Shown in pieces: positions 1 through 9,346 of a DNA stretch of 64,000 nt (position 1 is its first letter; each line of letters opens with the position of its first letter). Position numbers and translations under genes: made by a program. A model generated the notes under the pieces. The model searched no databases and was not told the DNA's origin. It saw nothing but the letters and a program-made list of their open reading frames with translations. The stretch is from Acidobacteriota bacterium (GTDB lineage Bacteria; Acidobacteriota; UBA890; WLXD01). Location: positions 2,464,001 to 2,528,000 of the forward strand of contig CBDBHB010000009.1 of assembly GCA_965205505.1 (NCBI GenBank), in the 5' to 3' direction.

Positions 1-321
1 CAGCTGCGTCGGTCGATGCAGGACCTCCGCTCTGTGGGCGTTGATTTCCTGACCCTCGGCCAGTACCTGCAGCCTACGTCGAAGCACCTTGACGTCGTTG
101 AGTGGGTGACGCCGGAGCGCTTCGCACAGTTACGGCAGCTCGGCGAGCGACTCGGCTTCGCCTATGTGGCGTCGGGCCCGCTGGTACGCAGCTCTTATCG
201 GGCTGGCGAGTTCTTCGTCGCCAATCTGGTCGAAACGCACCGTGTCGCTGCGTCGGCAACTATCCGCACCACGTCCGCGATTCGCGCTTCCTCGGGGGAG
301 GGGGCATGGGCGAATTGCTGA
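1..321 (+). CDS. lipA: Lipoyl synthase, C-terminal part (5' end outside window)
   Basis: [10 protein letters not shown]...[13 protein letters not shown] is the LipA C-terminal signature; frame is open from base 1; lies next to a lipoate-dependent dehydrogenase operon. Confidence 0.93.
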
Positions 322-1283
322 CCGTCCTCGCCGACGACGTCGAAGCGATCGAGCGCAACGTCGGCGACCTGTCGGATGCCGACCTGACGGCCCTGTACGA
401 GTCACTGGTCGTGACGCGGGTCGTCGATGAACGGTGCGCCCGTCTACAGCAGTCAGGGCGAATCGGGTTTTGGGCGCCGTCGGGAGCAAGCGCAGCGGTA
501 TCGGCGGGGGCCGCGAGGGCCTTCGAAGACGGCGATTGGCTATATCCGTCCTATCGTGATGTGGGAGCGTTTCTGGTGCGCGGCGGAAGCATCGAGCAGC
601 TGTTCGCGCAGGTGCTCGCGTCGCGGGACGACCTGGCGCGTGGGCGCCAGTTGCCCGGACACGCGACGCTGCCGGCGGGGCGCTTCGTATCGGTTTCGGG
701 GCCGCTGGCGACACAAATTCAACACGCTGTGGGAACCGCGCTGGCCATGAAGCTGCGACATGACCCCCACACCGTTCTCGCCCTGTTCGGAGCTGCAGCC
801 ACCGACCAGGCTTCCTTTCAGATAGGCCTCTCAACTGCCGAGCGACATGCTGCCCCCGTGGTCTTCGTGTGTCGTTGCCCGAGCACCTCGCTGGCGCCCC
901 TCGCGATGGCGCACGGCGTGAAACCGGTGAGCGTCGATGGCACCGACATGTTGGCTGTGTACACGGCGGCACGAAGCGCCCGAGAAGCCGCGTTGGCTGG
1001 TGCCGGACCGACGCTGATCGAGGCAGTTGTGCCGGCTGGCACGGCGACGCTGAAGCCGGCGGCCAGACTGCGCCCTTATCTCGAACACCGCGGCGTCTGG
1101 GACGCCGGCCGAGAGGACGAGTTCAGTCGCCGCTGCGAGGAGCGAGGGGAGGCCGCCATCGCCTCGGCGGAGAGCGTTGGGCCACCGACAGCCGACACGA
1201 TGTTCGACGATGTATGGGCGGAGCGACCCTGGATGCTGCAAGAGCAGTCGCGCAAGCTACGTCGCCTGAAGGACGAATCCTAG
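306..1283 (+). CDS. 2-oxoacid dehydrogenase E1 alpha-like subunit with degenerate ThDP motif (probable pseudo-enzyme)
   Basis: E1a landmarks present ([52 protein letters not shown]). GDG is replaced by GAA, and the NN motif and YRxxxHS loop are absent. ATG 306 follows GGGGAGGGGG. Confidence 0.85.
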
Positions 1284-1293
1284 CGAGACGAAG

Positions 1294-2265
1294 ATGCCCG
1301 ATCTCAACATGGCGCAAGCGATCAATCGGACGCTGAGCGTCGAGATGCGCCGCGACGACTCGATCGTGCTGTTAGGTGAGGATGTCGGGGCACTCGGCGG
1401 CCTGTTCAGTACCACTGAAGGGTTGCTCGACGATTTCGGCGAGCGGCGCGTTATCGACGCTCCCACCGGGGAAGGTGGTGTGATCGGCACCGCCGTGGGC
1501 ATGGCGCTCTACGGGCTCCGTCCGGTAACCGAGATTCAGTTCGCCGATTTTGTCTGGCCTGGCTTCGAGCACATCGTGTCGGAGATGTCCAGGATCCGAT
1601 ATCGCTCCGGAGGTCAATACGCTTGTCCCCTCGTCTTGCGCCTTCCTTACGGCGGTGGTGTCGGTGGCGGGATGTACCAATCGCAGAGCCCAGAAGCGTA
1701 CTTCTGCCATACGCCCGGGCTCGTCGTGGCAGCACCATCGGATCCGACGGACGCCGCTGGCATGCTCCGTGCGGCGCTGCGCGGAGATGACCCGGTCGTG
1801 TTCTTGGAGCCCAAGAGCCTCTATCAGGATTGCCGAGCCAGCGTCGACGACGAGCACCTCGTGCCGCTCGGCGAGGCTCGAGTTCGGCGGCCGGGTACTG
1901 ATGTTTCGGTGTTCGCATACGGGTCGATGGTGCCAGTAGCCCTGGCGGCGGCCGACGCCGCCGCCGGGTCGGGCATTCAAACCGACGTCGTCGATCTACG
2001 TACCCTGCTTCCGCTCGACATCGCCACCGTTCTGAGCTCGATTGCCAAGACCGGGCGGGCGGTGATTGTGGCCGAGTCGCCAACCTACTGCGGCTTTGCC
2101 GCCGAGCTCTCGGCGACGCTGTCGGAGCGCGCCCTGTTGCATCTGGAGGCGCCGGTCGAGCGCGTCGCCGGCTTCGACGTACCTTTCCCTCACGTTCACG
2201 AGAACGATTACTTGCCGAGCGAGCGACGGGTTGTCGCCGCCATCGAGCGAGTAGCAAACTTCTGA
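1294..2265 (+). CDS. 2-oxoacid dehydrogenase E1 beta subunit (branched-chain type); catalytic His replaced by Gln
   Basis: GEDVG, GMALYGLRPVTEIQFADF, RYRSGG, SQSPEAYFCHTPG and DPVVFLEPK present; YQSQS where YHSQS is expected. Confidence 0.9.
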   Translation: MPDLNMAQAINRTLSVEMRRDDSIVLLGEDVGALGGLFSTTEGLLDDFGERRVIDAPTGEGGVIGTAVGMALYGLRPVTEIQFADFVWPGFEHIVSEMSRIRYRSGGQYACPLVLRLPYGGGVGGGMYQSQSPEAYFCHTPGLVVAAPSDPTDAAGMLRAALRGDDPVVFLEPKSLYQDCRASVDDEHLVPLGEARVRRPGTDVSVFAYGSMVPVALAAADAAAGSGIQTDVVDLRTLLPLDIATVLSSIAKTGRAVIVAESPTYCGFAAELSATLSERALLHLEAPVERVAGFDVPFPHVHENDYLPSERRVVAAIERVANF

Positions 2266-2270
2266 GGCCC

Positions 2271-3674
2271 ATGGCAAGCGAGATCAAGCTACCGGAGATC
2301 GGCGAGGGGACGGCCGAGGGCGAGATCATCAAGTGGCTCGTCACGGAGGGCCAAGCCGTGGAGGAGGACACGCCGCTCGTCGAGGTCATGACCGACAAGG
2401 CCACAGTGGAGATCCCGGCGCCATTCTCGGGCACCGTGTTCGAGCTACGCGCCAAGGAAGGCGAAGTCGTCGACGTTGGTGCGGTGATCTTGCTTATCGA
2501 CAGGGGCGAGCAGGCTGACAGCAGCAACCCGAGCGACGCTCGGGAGGTCGGTGTAGCTTCGCAGCCCCATGACGATGCTGACCCTGTAGTGCCGATCGCG
2601 GCAGAGGAGGTCGCCGCCGACCCGGTGGCGGCGGCGCAGGCGATGGCACGCGCGGAGCTCGACTCGGAAGCTGAGGAGACGGCCATTTGGGAGGTTCCCC
2701 GGGCCGCGTCCGGCGCCACGCCCACGACCCCGGCCACCCGCCGCCTGGCTCGGCAGCTCGGCGTCGATCTGCAAGAGATACAAGGGACCGGCAAGGGTGG
2801 GCGAGTTACCAAGGCGGATCTCTTGGGTGGCGCCGATCGAGCCGCGCCAACGGAAGACTCGCCAGCGATTCCCGGTGCGATCGCCGAAGCCGCACCGGTC
2901 GCCGTCAGGGCGGTCGATGCGGCGCCGATGGTCGCCAGCAACGCTCCTCGGCTGACGCCGGTCTCCGCCGGTTCACTCGAAGAGCGCATTCCGCTGCGCG
3001 GGCTTCGGCGGCGGATTGCTGAGCGCCTGGTGGAGGCGAAGCGTCTTGTCCCGCACTTCACATACGTCGAGGAGTGCGACATGACCGAGATCGTAGCGTT
3101 GCGTCGCGAGGCCAAGGAGATGGCCGCTGCTCAAGGGCTGCGGGTTACCTACCTGCCCTTCTTCATCAAGGCGTTGATCGAGGCGTGCCGTCGCCATCCG
3201 ATCCTCAATTCGTCGCTCGACGACGAGAGCGGTGAGATCGTGCTGAAGCGCTACTACAACGTTGGCATCGCTACCGACACGGAACGCGGTCTGATGGTGC
3301 CAGTGGTGAAGAATGCCGACCAGCTGAGCATCTTCGAGTTGGCACAAGAGATCGCACGTCTTTCCACGGATGCGCGCGCCGGGCGAAGCGCCGCGGATGA
3401 TCTGCAGGGCGGGACCATCACGGTCACGAGTACCGGTAGCATCGGTGGACTCCTTGCCACGCCGATCATCAACCACCCCGAGGTGGCAATTCTGGGCGTG
3501 GTCGCTATTCGCAAGCGCCCGGTGGTGCGTGGCGACGAGACCGTGATCCGCGACATGATGAACCTTTCGCTTTCTCTGGACCATCGCGTCGTCGACGGTG
3601 CTCCGGCAGCGCAGTTCATGCGTGATCTAGTGGCGTTGCTCGAGGATCCCAAGCTGCAGCTGCTCGTGACCTGA
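2271..3674 (+). CDS. Dihydrolipoamide acyltransferase E2 (one lipoyl domain)
   Basis: Lipoyl motif TDKATVE; E3-binding TPATRRLARQLGVDL..GTGKGGRVTKAD; catalytic DHRVVDG. Confidence 0.95.
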   Translation: MASEIKLPEIGEGTAEGEIIKWLVTEGQAVEEDTPLVEVMTDKATVEIPAPFSGTVFELRAKEGEVVDVGAVILLIDRGEQADSSNPSDAREVGVASQPHDDADPVVPIAAEEVAADPVAAAQAMARAELDSEAEETAIWEVPRAASGATPTTPATRRLARQLGVDLQEIQGTGKGGRVTKADLLGGADRAAPTEDSPAIPGAIAEAAPVAVRAVDAAPMVASNAPRLTPVSAGSLEERIPLRGLRRRIAERLVEAKRLVPHFTYVEECDMTEIVALRREAKEMAAAQGLRVTYLPFFIKALIEACRRHPILNSSLDDESGEIVLKRYYNVGIATDTERGLMVPVVKNADQLSIFELAQEIARLSTDARAGRSAADDLQGGTITVTSTGSIGGLLATPIINHPEVAILGVVAIRKRPVVRGDETVIRDMMNLSLSLDHRVVDGAPAAQFMRDLVALLEDPKLQLLVT

Positions 3675-3682
3675 GCCTGACC

Positions 3683-5083
3683 ATGAGCGTCGACGTTCAA
3701 GTAGGGGTCGCTGTCATCGGGGCAGGTCCGGGCGGCTATGTGGCGGCAATACGCGCTGCGCAGCTAGGGCAGCGGGTCGCTGTGATCGAGAGGGAATTCG
3801 TCGGCGGCACTTGCCTCAATGTTGGGTGTATCCCGTCAAAGGCGCTGCTCGATGCCTCGCACTTGTTCAGCCAGATCAACCGGGCGTCGGTGTTCGGGAT
3901 ACAGGTCGAAGGCGCCAGCGTCGATTTCGCCGCCATGCAGCGACACAAGGCCAAGGTAGTCAAGGCGTTGACTACCGGCGTGCGCGGACTGCTCAAGCGG
4001 CAAGGGGTCGAGCGCCTGATGGGGACGGCGCGCTTCAAAGCACCGGGCGTGCTTGGCGTGGAGTCAGCGGACGGGACTGGCGTGACCGTCCGTGCGGATA
4101 ACGTCATTGTCGCCACCGGGTCCGTCGAGGCAGAGTTGCCCGGGGTTCCATTCGACGACGCCGTCGTGATCTCGTCGCGCGGCGCACTCGGTCTCGAGAT
4201 GGTGCCCGATCGCCTGGTCGTCGTAGGTGCGGGCTATATCGGACTGGAGATCGGGAGCGTGTACTCACGACTCGGCGCTGAGGTCGTCGTGCTGGAAATG
4301 AGGGATCGTGTCCTGCCGGAGATGGACGCCGAGGTAGCCGCGGCGGCCTACACGCTTCTCCGGCAGCAAGGGCTCGACATCCGCCTCGGTGCGAGGGTTG
4401 CTGCGGTCCAGGTCGCGGGCGATTCTGCCCGGGTACGCTACAGCGTCGAGGACAACGAGGCGACCGTCGAGGCGGACCGCGTGTTGGTCTCGATCGGTCG
4501 GCGGCCCGCCACCGACGGGCTCGGGCTCGACGCGATTGGGCTCGAAACCGACGATCGTGGTTTCATCATCGTCGACCACGGCATGCGCACCGGGGTGCCT
4601 GGCGTCTATGCGATCGGCGACGTTGTCGCTACGCCGATGCTGGCGCACGTGGCCATGGACGAGGGTGTTGTCGCGGCGGAATGTATCGCTGGCCAAGTCG
4701 CCGCGATGGAGTACGACGCGATCCCTGCGGTCGTGTTCACGCATCCAGAGCTCGCCTCGGTGGGGCTCCAGGAACAGGAGGCCGAGCTGCGCGGACACCG
4801 GCTCAAGGTAGGCCGCTTCCCGTTCCGCGGCAACGGCAGAGCACGGGCGCGCGACGACATGGAAGGCTGGGTGAAGGTGATCGCCGACGCCGACACCGAC
4901 GCGATCCTGGGAGTTCACTGTGTGGGCCCGGAGGCCGGGCATCTGATTCATGAGGCAGTCGTGGCAATGGGGTACGGCGGCTGTGCTGAAGACCTCGCGC
5001 TAACCGTCCACGCGCACCCGACGCTGTCAGAGGCGTTCAAGGAAGCCGCCCTGGCGGTTGACGGTCGCTCGCTGCACATTTGA
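3683..5083 (+). CDS. lpdA: Dihydrolipoyl dehydrogenase E3
   Basis: GAGPGGYVAA, GGTCLNVGCIPSK, GAGYIGLE, HAHPTLSE. Confidence 0.96.
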   Translation: MSVDVQVGVAVIGAGPGGYVAAIRAAQLGQRVAVIEREFVGGTCLNVGCIPSKALLDASHLFSQINRASVFGIQVEGASVDFAAMQRHKAKVVKALTTGVRGLLKRQGVERLMGTARFKAPGVLGVESADGTGVTVRADNVIVATGSVEAELPGVPFDDAVVISSRGALGLEMVPDRLVVVGAGYIGLEIGSVYSRLGAEVVVLEMRDRVLPEMDAEVAAAAYTLLRQQGLDIRLGARVAAVQVAGDSARVRYSVEDNEATVEADRVLVSIGRRPATDGLGLDAIGLETDDRGFIIVDHGMRTGVPGVYAIGDVVATPMLAHVAMDEGVVAAECIAGQVAAMEYDAIPAVVFTHPELASVGLQEQEAELRGHRLKVGRFPFRGNGRARARDDMEGWVKVIADADTDAILGVHCVGPEAGHLIHEAVVAMGYGGCAEDLALTVHAHPTLSEAFKEAALAVDGRSLHI

Positions 5084-5090
5084 TCGGCCG

Positions 5091-7325
5091 ATGGCGCGAG
5101 CGCAGGAACCGTCGCTGTTCGACGGACGGCTTCGAGGCACCGTTGCCCGTGTGGTGTTCGAGAATCGCGACACGGGCTGGGCTGTGGTGCACCTAGAGCC
5201 CGACGATGGGGGTTTAGTTACCGTAGTTGGTCCGCTGGCCCCGCTCTATCCTGGTGAGTGCGTCGAGGTCGAGGGCGAATGGGAAACCGATCGGCGCTAC
5301 GGCAGGCAATTTCGGGCGCACGGAAGCATACCGGCCGAGCCCCAGAGCGAGAGCGGTGCGCGGCGCTACCTTGCTTCCGGCGTGATTCCCGGGATCGGCC
5401 CGGAGTTCGCCAAGCGGCTCGTTGAGCGCTTCGGTACCGACACGTTGCGCGTCCTGGATGAAGAGCCAGAGCGTCTCCTCACGGTGCGCGGCATCGGCGC
5501 CAAGAGGCTCGAGCAAATCAAGGCCGGATGGTTGGAGAAGACCGCGCATCGACAGGCACGGATCTTTCTTCAGGGGCATGGGCTGGGCCCGGCGCTCGCC
5601 GAGAAAGTCGTACGCACCTGGGGGAAGGAGACCATCGGCCGGGTGCGGAGGAATCCCTACGCGCTCGCCCGCGAGGTGCGCGGCATCGGGTTTCGCACCG
5701 CCGATGGGCTGGCAATGCGATTGGGCATTGCCCCGGACGCTCCTGAGCGGTTGATGGCAGGGCTGGCGGAGGCGCTGTTCGCGGCTGCAGGCCGGGGCAA
5801 CTGTTTCCTGCTGCGTTCCGAGCTGCAGGCGGCGGCTGCCAAGTTGCTCGAGCTCGAGGACTCGTGCGCTCTGTTGTCGCCAGTCGACGCCCTGGCGCAA
5901 CGGCGCGAGGTAGTGGTGGAGCCGGCTGGCGACGCCGACCCGCGGGTCTACGTGACCGGCCTACATGCCGCCGAGCTGCGAGTGGCGCGCCGGCTAGCCG
6001 TCCTGGGTGCTTCGGTCGTGAGCGAGTCGGCACAGGAGAGCGAACGGGTGATCGGTGCGGTACGCCAAGTCGAGGCGGGCCTGGAGCTCGGCCTCGCGGA
6101 GGAGCAGCGCGGCGCGCTCGAGGCCGCGCTTCTCGGCCGCCTGGTGGTAGTTACCGGCGGCCCTGGCACTGGCAAGACAACGCTGGTCGATGCGATCGCC
6201 CGGTGTGCTGCCATGCTCGACTTGCGCGTCGCCCTTGCAGCTCCGACCGGTCGCGCAGCCAAGCGGATGGAGCAGGCGACGGGGCGCGAGGCCAAGACGA
6301 TCCATCGTCTACTCGAGTTCGGGTACGGGCAAGGTTTTGGTCGCGGGCCGGACAATCCCATCGACGCCGATCTAGCGGTGATCGACGAGTTCTCCATGGT
6401 CGATCTGGTGCTCATGGACGCGTTCATCGCCGCGTTGCGGCCGGACGCGCGACTGTTGATGGTTGGCGATGCCGACCAGCTGCCGCCCGTCGGTCCCGGA
6501 GCGGTATTACGCGACCTCATCGCGTCGGAGCGTGTGCCCACCGTGCGGTTGCGGCGAATCTTCCGCCAGGCACGTGCGAGTCTGATCGTGCGGAACGCGC
6601 ATCGGGTGAACGCAGGCGAGGTTCCCGAGGCTCCGGCATCCACCGATGAGCCCGATGCAGATTTCTACATGATCGACGAGCGCGATCCGGACCGCGCTCT
6701 TGCGCTCGTACGACGGCTGGTTACACGACGTATTCCTAGGCGCTTCGGGTTGGACCCCATGCGCGACGTGCAGGTGCTGGCGCCGATGCACCGGGGTCGT
6801 TGCGGCGTGACCCGACTCAACTCCGAGCTTCAGGCGGCGCTCAACGCGGGTTCGTTGGCGGCGTTGCCGGAGACGCCGGTGCTGAGTGTCGGGGACCGAG
6901 TCATGCAGCTGCGCAACGACTACGACCGCGAGGTGTTCAACGGCGACATCGGGCACGTGGCGCTCGCCGATCCGGAGGAGGGCTTGACGGTCGATTTTGA
7001 CGGTCGCCTCGTGGGCTACGACCGTGGCGCCGCAGTTGACCTGACGCTAGCATACGCTATCTCGGTGCATAAGAGTCAGGGGAGCGAGTATCCCGCCGTG
7101 GTAATCGTTCTCATGCCCGAGCACCACATCATGCTGCAGCGCAACCTGCTTTACACGGCGTTGACCCGGGCTCGGCGGGTCGCGGTGCTGATTAGCAGTC
7201 GCGATGCGCTCGCCCGTGCCGTTGCCAACGCATCGCCGTCAGCTCGGAACACGACGCTGGCTGAGCGTATTCGCGAGGCGCTCGATGGCGTCGCGCCTAC
7301 CTTGCCCATCACACCGGCGTACTAG
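5091..7325 (+). CDS. recD2: ATP-dependent RecD2-like DNA helicase
   Basis: N-terminal OB and HhH repeats (PGIG, RGIG); Walker A GGPGTGKT; APTGRAAKR; DEFSM; YAISVHKSQGSE; YTALTRAR. Confidence 0.95.
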   Translation: MARAQEPSLFDGRLRGTVARVVFENRDTGWAVVHLEPDDGGLVTVVGPLAPLYPGECVEVEGEWETDRRYGRQFRAHGSIPAEPQSESGARRYLASGVIPGIGPEFAKRLVERFGTDTLRVLDEEPERLLTVRGIGAKRLEQIKAGWLEKTAHRQARIFLQGHGLGPALAEKVVRTWGKETIGRVRRNPYALAREVRGIGFRTADGLAMRLGIAPDAPERLMAGLAEALFAAAGRGNCFLLRSELQAAAAKLLELEDSCALLSPVDALAQRREVVVEPAGDADPRVYVTGLHAAELRVARRLAVLGASVVSESAQESERVIGAVRQVEAGLELGLAEEQRGALEAALLGRLVVVTGGPGTGKTTLVDAIARCAAMLDLRVALAAPTGRAAKRMEQATGREAKTIHRLLEFGYGQGFGRGPDNPIDADLAVIDEFSMVDLVLMDAFIAALRPDARLLMVGDADQLPPVGPGAVLRDLIASERVPTVRLRRIFRQARASLIVRNAHRVNAGEVPEAPASTDEPDADFYMIDERDPDRALALVRRLVTRRIPRRFGLDPMRDVQVLAPMHRGRCGVTRLNSELQAALNAGSLAALPETPVLSVGDRVMQLRNDYDREVFNGDIGHVALADPEEGLTVDFDGRLVGYDRGAAVDLTLAYAISVHKSQGSEYPAVVIVLMPEHHIMLQRNLLYTALTRARRVAVLISSRDALARAVANASPSARNTTLAERIREALDGVAPTLPITPAY

Positions 7326-8011
7326 TGGTAACCGGCAAGCCGACCACTGAGCCTTACCAGGGAGCTACGCATGTTCGACACGTCGAGGTGGTGGCGCCGT
7401 TCGGCGAGAACTCGTGGTTGATTGGCTGCCCCGAAACAGGTGCTGCGGCGCTTGTCGATCCGGGCGGTCACGTAACGGAGTTGCTCGCCATTGCCGGCCA
7501 GCAAGGGCTCGACGTCGAGCAGATCTGGCTCACTCACGCTCATATCGATCACGTAGCGGGTGTTGCCGAGGCAGTAGAGGCGACCGGCGCGCCGCTGGCG
7601 CTCCACCCGCTGGATCGACCGCTGTACGACGCGGTCGAGCAGCAGGCGGCGATGTTCGGGCTTCATGTGCCATCGTTGCCGACACCGACCCGCTGGCTCG
7701 AAACCGACGAGATGATGGAGCTGGGGGGACTGCGCGCCCGAGTTCTGCACGTGCCCGGCCATGCGCCGGGACACGTGGCCTTCTGGTTCGCTGAGCTCGA
7801 TATCGTGGTTTCGGGTGACTGTCTGTTTGCCGGATCGATCGGCCGCACCGATCTGCCAGGTGGCAACTACGAGGCCCTGATGCACTCGATTCGCACCGTG
7901 TTGCTCCCTCTCGGCGAAGAGGTCACGGTGCTTCCTGGTCATGGCCCGGAAACGACACTGGGTCAGGAGCGGCGCACCAACCCGTTTCTTACCACGCCGT
8001 CTTCCGCCTGA
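7325..8011 (+). CDS. MBL-fold metallo-hydrolase (glyoxalase II-like)
   Basis: THAHIDH, PGHAPG, GDCLF..SIGRTDLPGG, PGHGPETT; GTG overlaps the recD2 TAG, so the start is uncertain. Confidence 0.9.
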   Translation: MVTGKPTTEPYQGATHVRHVEVVAPFGENSWLIGCPETGAAALVDPGGHVTELLAIAGQQGLDVEQIWLTHAHIDHVAGVAEAVEATGAPLALHPLDRPLYDAVEQQAAMFGLHVPSLPTPTRWLETDEMMELGGLRARVLHVPGHAPGHVAFWFAELDIVVSGDCLFAGSIGRTDLPGGNYEALMHSIRTVLLPLGEEVTVLPGHGPETTLGQERRTNPFLTTPSSA

Positions 8012-8068: not shown

Positions 8069-9346
8069 TCAGGCTCCCATGAGCCTCTTGGTGAGCCACT
8101 TTTCGGCATCGAGGGCGGCGCGGCAGCCATATCCCGCGGCGGTGATCGCCTGCCGGTAGTGGTGGTCGTGGACATCGCCCGCCACGAACACGCCGTCGAT
8201 CGCGGTGCTGGGCAGCGGCCGCTCGTCGTCGGCTACGTAGCCCAGCTCATCGAGCCGGATCGGCCAGTCGACCAGCACTCCGGTGTTGGGGTCGTGACCG
8301 ATGGCGATAAAGCATCCGTCGACCTGCACGTTGGCACCCTCGCCGGTTTGATTGTTGATCACTTGCACGCCGGTGAGTCCTGTTTCCGACGTGCCGACGA
8401 ACTCCTCGACCTCGGTGTTCCACAGGACATCGATCTGCTCGTGCTCCAGAACGCGTCGAGCCATGATGGGGCTGGCGCGGAGCTCGTCGCGTCGGTGTAG
8501 AAGCGTCACCGAGGAAGCGAACTTGGTGAGGAACAGGGCCTCTTCCATGGCGGAGTCACCGCCGCCGACGATCGCTACGGGTCGACCGCGGAAGAAGGCT
8601 GCATCGCACGTCGCGCAGGTGGAGACGCCGTAGCCGCGTAGCTCCATCTCACCGGGTACCCCCAGGGCCTTTGGCGACGCGCCCGTGGCAATGATCAGCG
8701 CATCGCAAGTGTGCTCGGCGCTGCCCTCCAGGACGACCTTGAAAGGGTGCTCACCTAGCTGAAGGCTGTCGACGTGACCAAACAACAGCTCGGCGCCGAA
8801 TCGCTCCGCCTGCGCCCGCATCCCGTCGATGAGCTCGGGCCCTTGGATACCGTCTGGGAACCCTGGGAAGTTCTCGACATCCGTCGTCGTGTATAGCTGT
8901 CCACCTAGCTCGCGACCGGTGATCACCAGCGGCGCCAAGTTGGCACGGGCGCTATAGATGGCCGCTGTCAGGCCGGCGCAGCCGGAGCCGATGATGATCA
9001 GCTCACGATGGTTCTCAGCCACCTCGCCCTCCGGGGCCCTGTCACGGCTATCGGCGTCCACAATCCCGGCACCGTTGTGGCCGTCGCGGTCGGCGTTGAG
9101 CAGCGGGTCCAGTTCGCCGCGAGTCTCGAGCGCGGCGAGCTCGTCGAACCCACCGATGTGCAGATCGTCGATGAATATCTGTGGCGCGGTGGCACGGCCG
9201 TTGGAGCGCTCGATCATCTCCGCGAATCGAGCACGGTCGGTCGAGACGTCGATCTCGTCCCATTCCACGCCCTTCGCCGCGAGCAGGTTCTTGGCCCAGC
9301 TGCAGTACGAGCAGAACGACTTGGTGTAGACGACAACTTGAGGCAT
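8069..9346 (-). CDS. trxB: Glutaredoxin-3 domain fused to thioredoxin reductase
   Basis: N-terminal YTKSFCSYC..TAPQIFIDDLHIGGFDEL; linker; then IIGSGCAG, GGQL, ENFPGF, CATCD, GGGDSAMEEA, HRRD, QAITAAG. Confidence 0.93.
   Translation of the reverse strand: MPQVVVYTKSFCSYCSWAKNLLAAKGVEWDEIDVSTDRARFAEMIERSNGRATAPQIFIDDLHIGGFDELAALETRGELDPLLNADRDGHNGAGIVDADSRDRAPEGEVAENHRELIIIGSGCAGLTAAIYSARANLAPLVITGRELGGQLYTTTDVENFPGFPDGIQGPELIDGMRAQAERFGAELLFGHVDSLQLGEHPFKVVLEGSAEHTCDALIIATGASPKALGVPGEMELRGYGVSTCATCDAAFFRGRPVAIVGGGDSAMEEALFLTKFASSVTLLHRRDELRASPIMARRVLEHEQIDVLWNTEVEEFVGTSETGLTGVQVINNQTGEGANVQVDGCFIAIGHDPNTGVLVDWPIRLDELGYVADDERPLPSTAIDGVFVAGDVHDHHYRQAITAAGYGCRAALDAEKWLTKRLMGA

Follow-up and report, generated by a model that had tools for sequence, protein, structure and literature searches.

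A conserved split E1 without its catalytic and cofactor residues in a 2-oxoacid dehydrogenase operon of Acidobacteriota: a putative pseudoenzyme subunit

In 2-oxoacid dehydrogenase complexes, the E1 component has always been taken as the catalytic entry point. The E3-binding protein (E3BP, or protein X) of the eukaryotic pyruvate dehydrogenase (PDH) complex is an E2 paralogue that has lost catalysis and serves a structural purpose, and TKTL1 is a member of the thiamine diphosphate (ThDP) family in which a deletion removes cofactor-binding residues and whose activity is debated. Here we describe the operon lipA-E1alpha-E1beta-E2-E3 found at the start of a 64-kb stretch of Acidobacteriota DNA (assembly GCA_965205505.1, contig CBDBHB010000009.1, positions 2,464,001 to 2,528,000; hereafter the window), in which both subunits of the split E1 have lost catalytic residues and are kept by selection. 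The likeness to E3BP, in that a complex would retain an inactive paralogue of one of its components for structural purposes, is a loose analogy with a putative role on the side of the window; the two differ in the component concerned, E2 and not E1, and in the domain of life. TKTL1 differs in being another enzyme, eukaryotic and outside multienzyme complexes.

The closest described enzymes are the E1 components of the branched-chain 2-oxoacid dehydrogenase (BCKDH) type from Thermus thermophilus (1UM9), human (1DTW/1OLS) and Pseudomonas putida (1QS0), which have the same fold and the same subunit split; the window operon also contains E2 and E3. In contrast to these enzymes, the window pair is devoid of the Mg-ThDP motif GDG/GEG-X(~26)-NN, of the inner and outer active-site loops, of the alpha loop His and of the beta His, and it scores below the NCBIfam cut-offs (205.8 versus 411.35 bits for E1alpha with TIGR03181, 279.7 versus 321 bits for E1beta with NF006667). 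As regards the Geobacillus system, the window E1beta C-terminus (...VANF) aligns end to end with that of the Geobacillus E1beta (...VMNF), the ...NF ending being kept in the class to which the window belongs, and the window E2 has a canonical peripheral subunit-binding domain (PSBD). It differs from this system by its E1, presumably inactive, and by an E2 linker with an additional WE(A/V)P motif and a helix that is missing in the outside-class E2s compared. A third comparison is offered by the operons with two alpha genes of Myxococcota, Planctomycetota and other Acidobacteriota, relative to which the family of the window has dropped alpha2 and has mutated the beta His too. Among the subjects of the work on the Geobacillus enzyme are the roles of D173, N202 and the inner loop, and the action of H271alpha of the outer loop in acetyl transfer (PMC2663715); titles of human BCKDH entries in the PDB designate His291-alpha and His146-beta' as reductive acylation residues.

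The genes of the operon are the following, in window positions:

1-321, plus strand: lipA (lipoyl synthase), which opens the operon; the window includes its 3' end, and its start lies 5' of the window
306-1283, plus strand: degenerate E1alpha of 325 amino acids (aa), with a PP-domain fold from which the ThDP-Mg site is gone, its ATG placed after the ribosome-binding stretch GGGGGAGGGGG
1294-2265, plus strand: E1beta of 323 aa (PF02779 and PF02780), well conserved, with the catalytic His replaced
2271-3674, plus strand: E2 acyltransferase of 467 aa, composed of a lipoyl domain (PF00364), a linker, the PSBD (PF02817, residues 152-185) and the catalytic domain (PF00198)
3683-5083, plus strand: E3 dihydrolipoyl dehydrogenase of 466 aa, intact

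The sites of the losses in the two E1 genes are:

786-803, plus strand: FGAAAT, the remnant of the GDG/GEG Mg-ThDP motif (residues 161-166), with GGA at 789-791 coding for Gly162 and no acidic residue left
870-890, plus strand: CRCPSTS, where a deletion of about 13 residues took away the NN motif together with the inner active-site loop
1017-1058, plus strand: the site of a deletion of about 25 residues which removed the outer loop with the catalytic His
1672-1695, plus strand: MYQSQSPE, with CAA at 1678-1680 coding for Gln129 where an E1beta normally has its catalytic His (human H146beta')

E1alpha was aligned to the solved chains of Thermus (1UM9_A) and human (1V11_A). In this alignment GDG/GEG is changed to GAA and neither the acidic residue nor the Asn pair is present; on the beta side, 'hhhsqspe' of Thermus is aligned with 'myqsqspe' of the window. 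These losses had all been read by the first-pass annotation, made from the DNA letters, and each of them was recovered at its position in agreement with the alignments. The motifs that it had reported as intact in the neighbouring genes were likewise confirmed: TDKA (lipoyl Lys43) and DHRVVDG in E2, CLNVGC and HPTLSE in E3, the latter protein scoring above the TIGR01350 cut-off (552 versus 409 bits).

Both subunits are homologous to E1 in sequence and fold and are without the catalytic and cofactor residues. E1beta matches 1UM9_B with an E value of 6.5e-106 and E1alpha matches 1UM9_A with an E value of 2e-40; the match of E1alpha to PF00676 (E1_dh; E value 1.5e-41) covers just positions 3-223 of the 300 of the profile. 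The AlphaFold model of E1alpha (predicted local distance difference test, pLDDT, 85.9; predicted template modelling score, pTM, 0.85) superimposes on human BCKDH E1alpha with Foldseek template modelling (TM) scores of 0.86-0.89. From these residue losses, we infer that the split pair is without activity, being capable neither of Mg-ThDP anchoring nor of reductive acylation.

It could be argued that the pair is still an enzyme which binds ThDP without the Mg motif or catalyzes a different reaction. The strong purifying selection described below would be in agreement with this idea, as would the retention of the beta Glu and of several alpha pocket residues: the Glu position of TGEGG, which we take to be the residue activating the aminopyrimidine of ThDP, is kept in all 26 aligned E1beta and fused-beta rows, and the remaining half of the old cofactor/substrate pocket (SYRD, GRQLPGH and S131) is invariant or nearly so within the degenerate clade. 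However, the acid of GDG, the NN pair, the inner loop, the outer-loop His and the beta His are all gone together, and we consider a surviving enzymatic activity improbable.

The host class is a small class of Acidobacteriota with 26 GTDB species genomes distributed in two families (f1 and f2). The operon lipA-E1alpha-E1beta-E2-(E1alpha2)-E3 is present in 22 of the 26 genomes, with a lipA-like open reading frame (ORF) 5' of E1alpha in every relative examined; the lipA label of the 106-aa window fragment comes from BLASTP to the longer ORFs of these relatives and from the first-pass label, the fragment having no Pfam match. A second E1alpha (alpha2) exists in three genomes, G010, G002 and G001, and lies between E2 and E3 in G010 and G002, where the positions were read. 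The first copy, alpha1, is degenerate in 21 genomes out of 22, the NN motif and the His loop being both gone. The alpha1 of G010 is fully canonical (GDGATSQ, QNNQWAIS, GPHSSNDDP), those of G002 and G001 are half degenerate (FGEAAK, CQNRR, without His loop) and the other 19 have neither NN nor His loop. In the family of the window, the GDG site without acidic residue and both deletions are present in all genomes (11/11). The His to Gln replacement of E1beta is found in 12 of the 21 aligned sequences, namely the 11 of this family and G009, and His (YHSQS) is found in the nine others; the E1beta of G013, broken by one in-frame TAG, was left out of this alignment. The G009 E1beta (L151:726-1694) presents the same local sequence, GGGMYQSQSPE, and since this genome belongs to the other family its His to Gln change is apparently a second, parallel substitution.

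The selection acting on the pair was estimated by the Nei-Gojobori ratio of nonsynonymous to synonymous substitution rates (dN/dS, or omega). Among four genomes of the genus, dN/dS was 0.07-0.11 for alpha, 0.08-0.11 for beta, 0.08-0.13 for E3 and 0.16-0.24 for E2; in four further pairs taken from both families it was 0.13-0.23 for alpha and 0.10-0.20 for beta. Logan contigs assembled from the runs of three studies (X4, X6 and X7), one run of which is possibly the source of the window itself, each cover positions 306-2265 unbroken and differ from the window by 1-2 substitutions, with zero indels and unchanged key codons. The E1 pair is under strong purifying selection, of the order seen for E3, and neither decay nor an assembly error accounts for its state. 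Slowly decaying pseudogenes or an assembly artefact would indeed be barely credible: a loss did occur in one genus (the TAG of G013, the deletion of the split E1 in G015 and G011), but both families have intact frames, dN/dS is not near 1, frameshifts are not seen in most relatives, and the contigs of the three studies match but for the few substitutions mentioned above. The proposal of the first-pass annotation, a retained non-catalytic E1 as opposed to decay, is thereby favoured on three sides, by the recurrence of the losses in orthologous operons, by dN/dS values of 0.07-0.23 in alpha and beta, and by the agreement of the contigs. It had regarded close relatives with intact motifs and a dN/dS near 1 as the mark of recent decay; one relative with intact motifs, G010, does exist, and what it shows is ancestry and not recent decay. 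By their lost residues and conserved frames, the two proteins would correspond to a pseudoenzyme in the working sense of an enzyme homologue which has lost its catalytic residues and is kept by selection.

PF00676 matches are found at two places of the 96%-complete genome, both on the same contig: the window E1alpha and an E1 in which alpha and beta are fused.

G000 contig 9, 126155-128380 (equivalent to L007:922-3147), minus strand: orphan fused E1alpha-beta of 741 aa, 2.3 Mb from the operon

The motifs of this fused E1 are intact (GDGTTAE, ADNDIAIS, GHSSAADL and YHSMS). No E2 adjoins it, the sole neighbouring ORF of at least 200 aa being alanine dehydrogenase- or PntA-like as named by reading, without family scan. 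Its closest solved relatives are BCKDH subunits, which are distant, and no solved structure of the fused type turned up. A complete AceE-AceF-Lpd operon is located on contig 8, two POR_N oxidoreductases are present, and no E1 of the sucA type was found in the genome. A second, intact E1, as envisaged in the first-pass annotation, thus exists in the form of the fused protein, in addition to AceE. Because the other E2 of the genome sits in the complete AceE-AceF-Lpd operon, the window E2 and E3 would belong to another, distinct complex that has a dead E1 of its own and for which the fused E1 is the sole orphan E1 available. Of the 26 class genomes, 24 have an orthologue of the fused E1 (at least 58% identity). 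The two where none was found are G010 (90% complete), which has the canonical split E1, and G008 (83% complete), which is discussed below. In G015 and G011, two genomes of 2.5 Mb, lipA-E2-E3 is followed by a 770-aa ORF, both split E1 genes are gone and the fused E1 is kept elsewhere; since these genomes retain E2/E3 and the fused E1 without any split E1, E2/E3 can, to judge from gene content, be fed by an E1 encoded elsewhere.

These observations bear on the idea that E2 and E3 constitute a lipoyl redox relay of the Lpd-DlaT-AhpD type, operating without decarboxylase and keeping the dead E1 as a leftover structural partner. The presence of intact E2 and E3 beside a dead operon E1 is compatible with such a relay. 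Nevertheless, the intact orphan fused E1, for which no E2 of its own exists, occurs in 24 of 26 genomes, including G015 and G011 which have no split E1, and the other E2 of the genome has its own complete operon; we regard the relay as distinctly unlikely. The C-terminal tail of the fused E1, ...W[MI]PRRYYEG, is kept in the four sequences seen (own genome, G017, G018 and G022) and is missing in the G015 orthologue. In G016, E3 (L121, 10100-11504) lies in two overlapping frames and the fused E1 (C1:112771-114978) contains one TGA, which may be frameshifts or assembly errors.

We propose, with a probability of roughly one half, that the split pair is a pseudoenzyme docked on E2 and that the orphan fused E1 serves as the decarboxylase. 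E1alpha and E1beta would fold like an alpha2beta2 E1 of the BCKDH type, in a putative assembly that no longer anchors Mg-ThDP through alpha and no longer carries out reductive acylation, for want of the alpha loop His and the beta His. The pair would have been retained since an E1-shaped particle still assembles on the E2 core, where the docked dead particle would be a structural or occupancy-setting subunit; control of E1/E3 site occupancy, stabilisation or regulation are its candidate contributions. The acyl groups for E2/E3 would be supplied by the fused E1 encoded 2.3 Mb away. The docking on E2, the contribution of the linker motif described hereafter and the partnership of the fused E1 with the window E2 are, like the alpha2beta2 assembly, deductions.

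The E2 linker carries two elements that may bear on docking (alignment A4):

2646-2699, plus strand: class-specific helix '..ARAEL..' followed by WEVP (2688-2699), about 10 residues before the PSBD

The helix (A.AR..ARAE[LR]; 2646-2660 in the window) is found class-wide, including in genomes without split E1, and is missing in the five outside-class E2s compared; the fused E1 might dock there. The WE(A/V)P motif (WExP) is present in all 18 E2s that have a degenerate alpha1 and no alpha2 in the operon, with the variant PWEIA in G021. The motif is missing from the E2s of the alpha2-bearing genomes G010 and G002 and from those of G015 and G011, where the split E1 is gone. The split E1 and WExP occur together in G013, a congener of G015 and G011. 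The concordance of WExP with the state 'degenerate alpha1, no alpha2' is complete (22/22 operons), and this co-variation with the dead E1 is suggestive only. In 1W85 it is this end of E1beta, the one aligned above between the window and Geobacillus, that touches the PSBD.

Several results weigh against the proposal or limit its support. When placed on the E2+E3 tree, the correlation of WExP amounts to just 2 independent contrasts, which go in the same direction and are non-significant (sign test, p 0.5). The predicted complex of two E1beta with E2 residues 112-192, which resembles 1W85, lends weak support: its median score of 0.57 (best of 3 controls 0.00; contact agreement between runs at least 50%, partner pLDDT at least 60) lies above a mark that 58 of 80 solved complexes attained, along with 2 of 110 mismatched pairs, in the range up to 0.60 where 7 of the 80 solved complexes and both passing mismatches are found, and the pass may reflect memory because a like complex has been solved (1W85). 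The C-terminus of the fused E1, the putative partner of the window E2, is unlike that of a canonical E1beta, and the fused E1 was not found in G008 despite the degenerate alpha1 of this genome. The E1beta of G013 (L138/L099, contig 35), with its in-frame TAG, is the exception to the intact frames, and G013 is the only member of the genus that it forms with G015 and G011 still holding a split E1. The split E1 is dispensable, having been deleted in G015 and G011, and these deletions together with the TAG of G013 indicate that selection for it is not universal and lapsed in one lineage. No ThDP enzyme without GDG...NN is known to us, and the absence of ThDP binding in the window pair is a prediction.

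A non-catalytic role independent of PSBD docking should also be considered, either as a sensor or regulator responding to 2-oxoacids or thiamine derivatives bound in the remodelled pocket, or as a lipoyl-domain-binding helper for LipA-dependent lipoylation. The near invariance of the rest of the pocket, with an omega of 0.06 for the half running from YRD to GRQLPGH, would suit a sensor, the beta Glu is kept in every row, and lipA is the first gene of the operon. However, lipA adjoins the canonical E1 operons of Planctomycetota and Myxococcota as well; the adjacency is ancestral and therefore uninformative as to a lipoylation helper. Moreover, such a role leaves the co-loss of WExP and split E1 unexplained, and we hold it to be unlikely. 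Among the functions suggested in the first-pass annotation, a scaffold or competitor on E2 fits best, in view of the beta C-terminus, the E2 linker motif and the weak pass of the complex prediction, and so joins the docked pseudoenzyme proposed here; its other suggestion, a redox module free of decarboxylase, is unneeded because of the intact orphan E1 in 24 of the 26 genomes.

The split E1 of this locus is conserved, under selection and, as judged from sequence, dead in both subunits; a catalytic stand-in for it can be identified, the E2 linker offers a candidate docking motif, and the function of the pair is putative. If the docked pseudoenzyme is real, a dead E1 under selection would be a new non-catalytic peripheral subunit in bacterial complexes, with E3BP as the known eukaryotic parallel, and would provide a natural system for the control of E2 binding-domain occupancy. 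Source annotations name the split E1 genes 'pyruvate/2-oxoisovalerate dehydrogenase E1', by reason of which metabolic reconstructions credit these Acidobacteriota with an activity that they probably lack. Full-text searching, with subscription journals and supplements outside its scope, found neither an E1 without ThDP motif nor a non-catalytic E1 subunit.

Concerning the origin of the pair, operons of the type E1alpha1-E1beta-E2-E1alpha2 are also found in Myxococcota and Planctomycetota, and in several other Acidobacteriota the alpha matches come in pairs with a spacing of 3-4 kb, which points to a like gene order; the two-alpha operon is likely the ancestral architecture. In the alpha tree, the alpha1 sequences of the class form one group (SH-like approximate likelihood ratio test, SH-aLRT, 93), whose earliest branches are the canonical G010 and a metagenome protein; the 20 degenerate sequences make up a single clade (SH-aLRT 99). 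The alpha2 sequences are grouped with those of other phyla. In the E2+E3 tree, the branching of G010, G002 and the other members of family f2 relative to family f1 is not resolved. A single origin of the alpha1 degeneration is possible and not proven; long-branch effects could also join degenerate sequences.

Similar losses were observed in other lineages. The alpha1 of a Myxococcota metagenome-assembled genome (MAG; L010) has lost NN and the His loop, that of Labilithrix luteola (L046) has lost the His loop, and in the metagenome contigs L235 and L275 lipA is accompanied by an alpha whose degeneration is complete and by a beta that keeps His. In the Myxococcota MAG, alpha2 (L010:10406-11691) is spread over two frames, maybe by a frameshift or an assembly error. 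A GTDB search with the profile of the degenerate clade gave, among the best 80 loci, only two in which GDG/GEG is gone, both from the class of the window. When 1.84 billion representative proteins were searched by profile, 69 of 152 rows (the best 150, listed as P0121-P0267, and two references) were without all three alpha motifs, these being the window protein and 68 others; 59 rows had all three motifs and 24 were intermediate, and these fractions are not frequencies because the query profile favours degenerate sequences. With 68 proteins of this kind in the best 150, the search suggests that many more exist in metagenomes. The degenerate rows of a rough FastTree gather mainly in two groups (31 and 42 rows), where long-branch effects may play a part. 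The second degenerate group (alignment A5) was looked for among 301 Acidobacteriota genomes, where 23 of 25 loci read (L178 of G071, an unpublished genome, included) were canonical and the 2 degenerate ones came from the window's own class, and among 201 genomes of the phylum of a Myxococcota MAG, where 30 of 30 loci read were canonical; the A5 profile was non-discriminating. A metagenome scan with A6, a pattern common to canonical E1alpha, revealed a non-canonical alpha in 7 of 80 loci, of which 2 were fully degenerate and 5 partial.

The E2s found beside degenerate or partly degenerate E1alphas in these other lineages (Labilithrix and metagenome contigs) have a linker motif in common, 'ATAVGDIKE[ST]LPG ... 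F[NQ].KPLATPATRKLAR'. Such a conserved motif is unusual, linkers being normally of low complexity. It was read in the following E2s:

L046:9126-10586, E2 with the ATAVGDIKE linker motif
L235:4636-5709, E2 with the ATAVGDIKE linker motif
L272:5428-6807, E2 with the ATAVGDIKE linker motif
L277:6163-6957, E2 with the ATAVGDIKE linker motif

One may tentatively imagine that the E1alphas without ThDP motifs make up a large family of non-catalytic subunits, ancient and so far without description, derived from the alpha1 copies of two-alpha operons and each paired with a specific docking motif of the E2 linker (WE(A/V)P here, 'ATAVGDIKExLPG' elsewhere), which would organise or regulate complexes run by alpha2 or by a fused E1. 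This generalisation, in which the lineage of the window would be the extreme case with its beta dead too, is conceivable and somewhat doubtful.

The surroundings of the operon were named by reading the sequence, without family scan. A 755-aa ORF (5058-7325, plus strand) overlaps the end of E3 and has a P-loop, GGPGTGKT, in a RecD/helicase-like protein. It is followed by an ORF of the metallo-beta-lactamase (MBL) fold, glyoxalase II-like (7325-8011, plus strand), adjoining a 425-aa ORF (8069-9346, minus strand) that appears to combine a glutaredoxin-like N-terminus with a thioredoxin-reductase-like body. On the upstream side, the genome carries two paired genes resembling those of ABC transporters.

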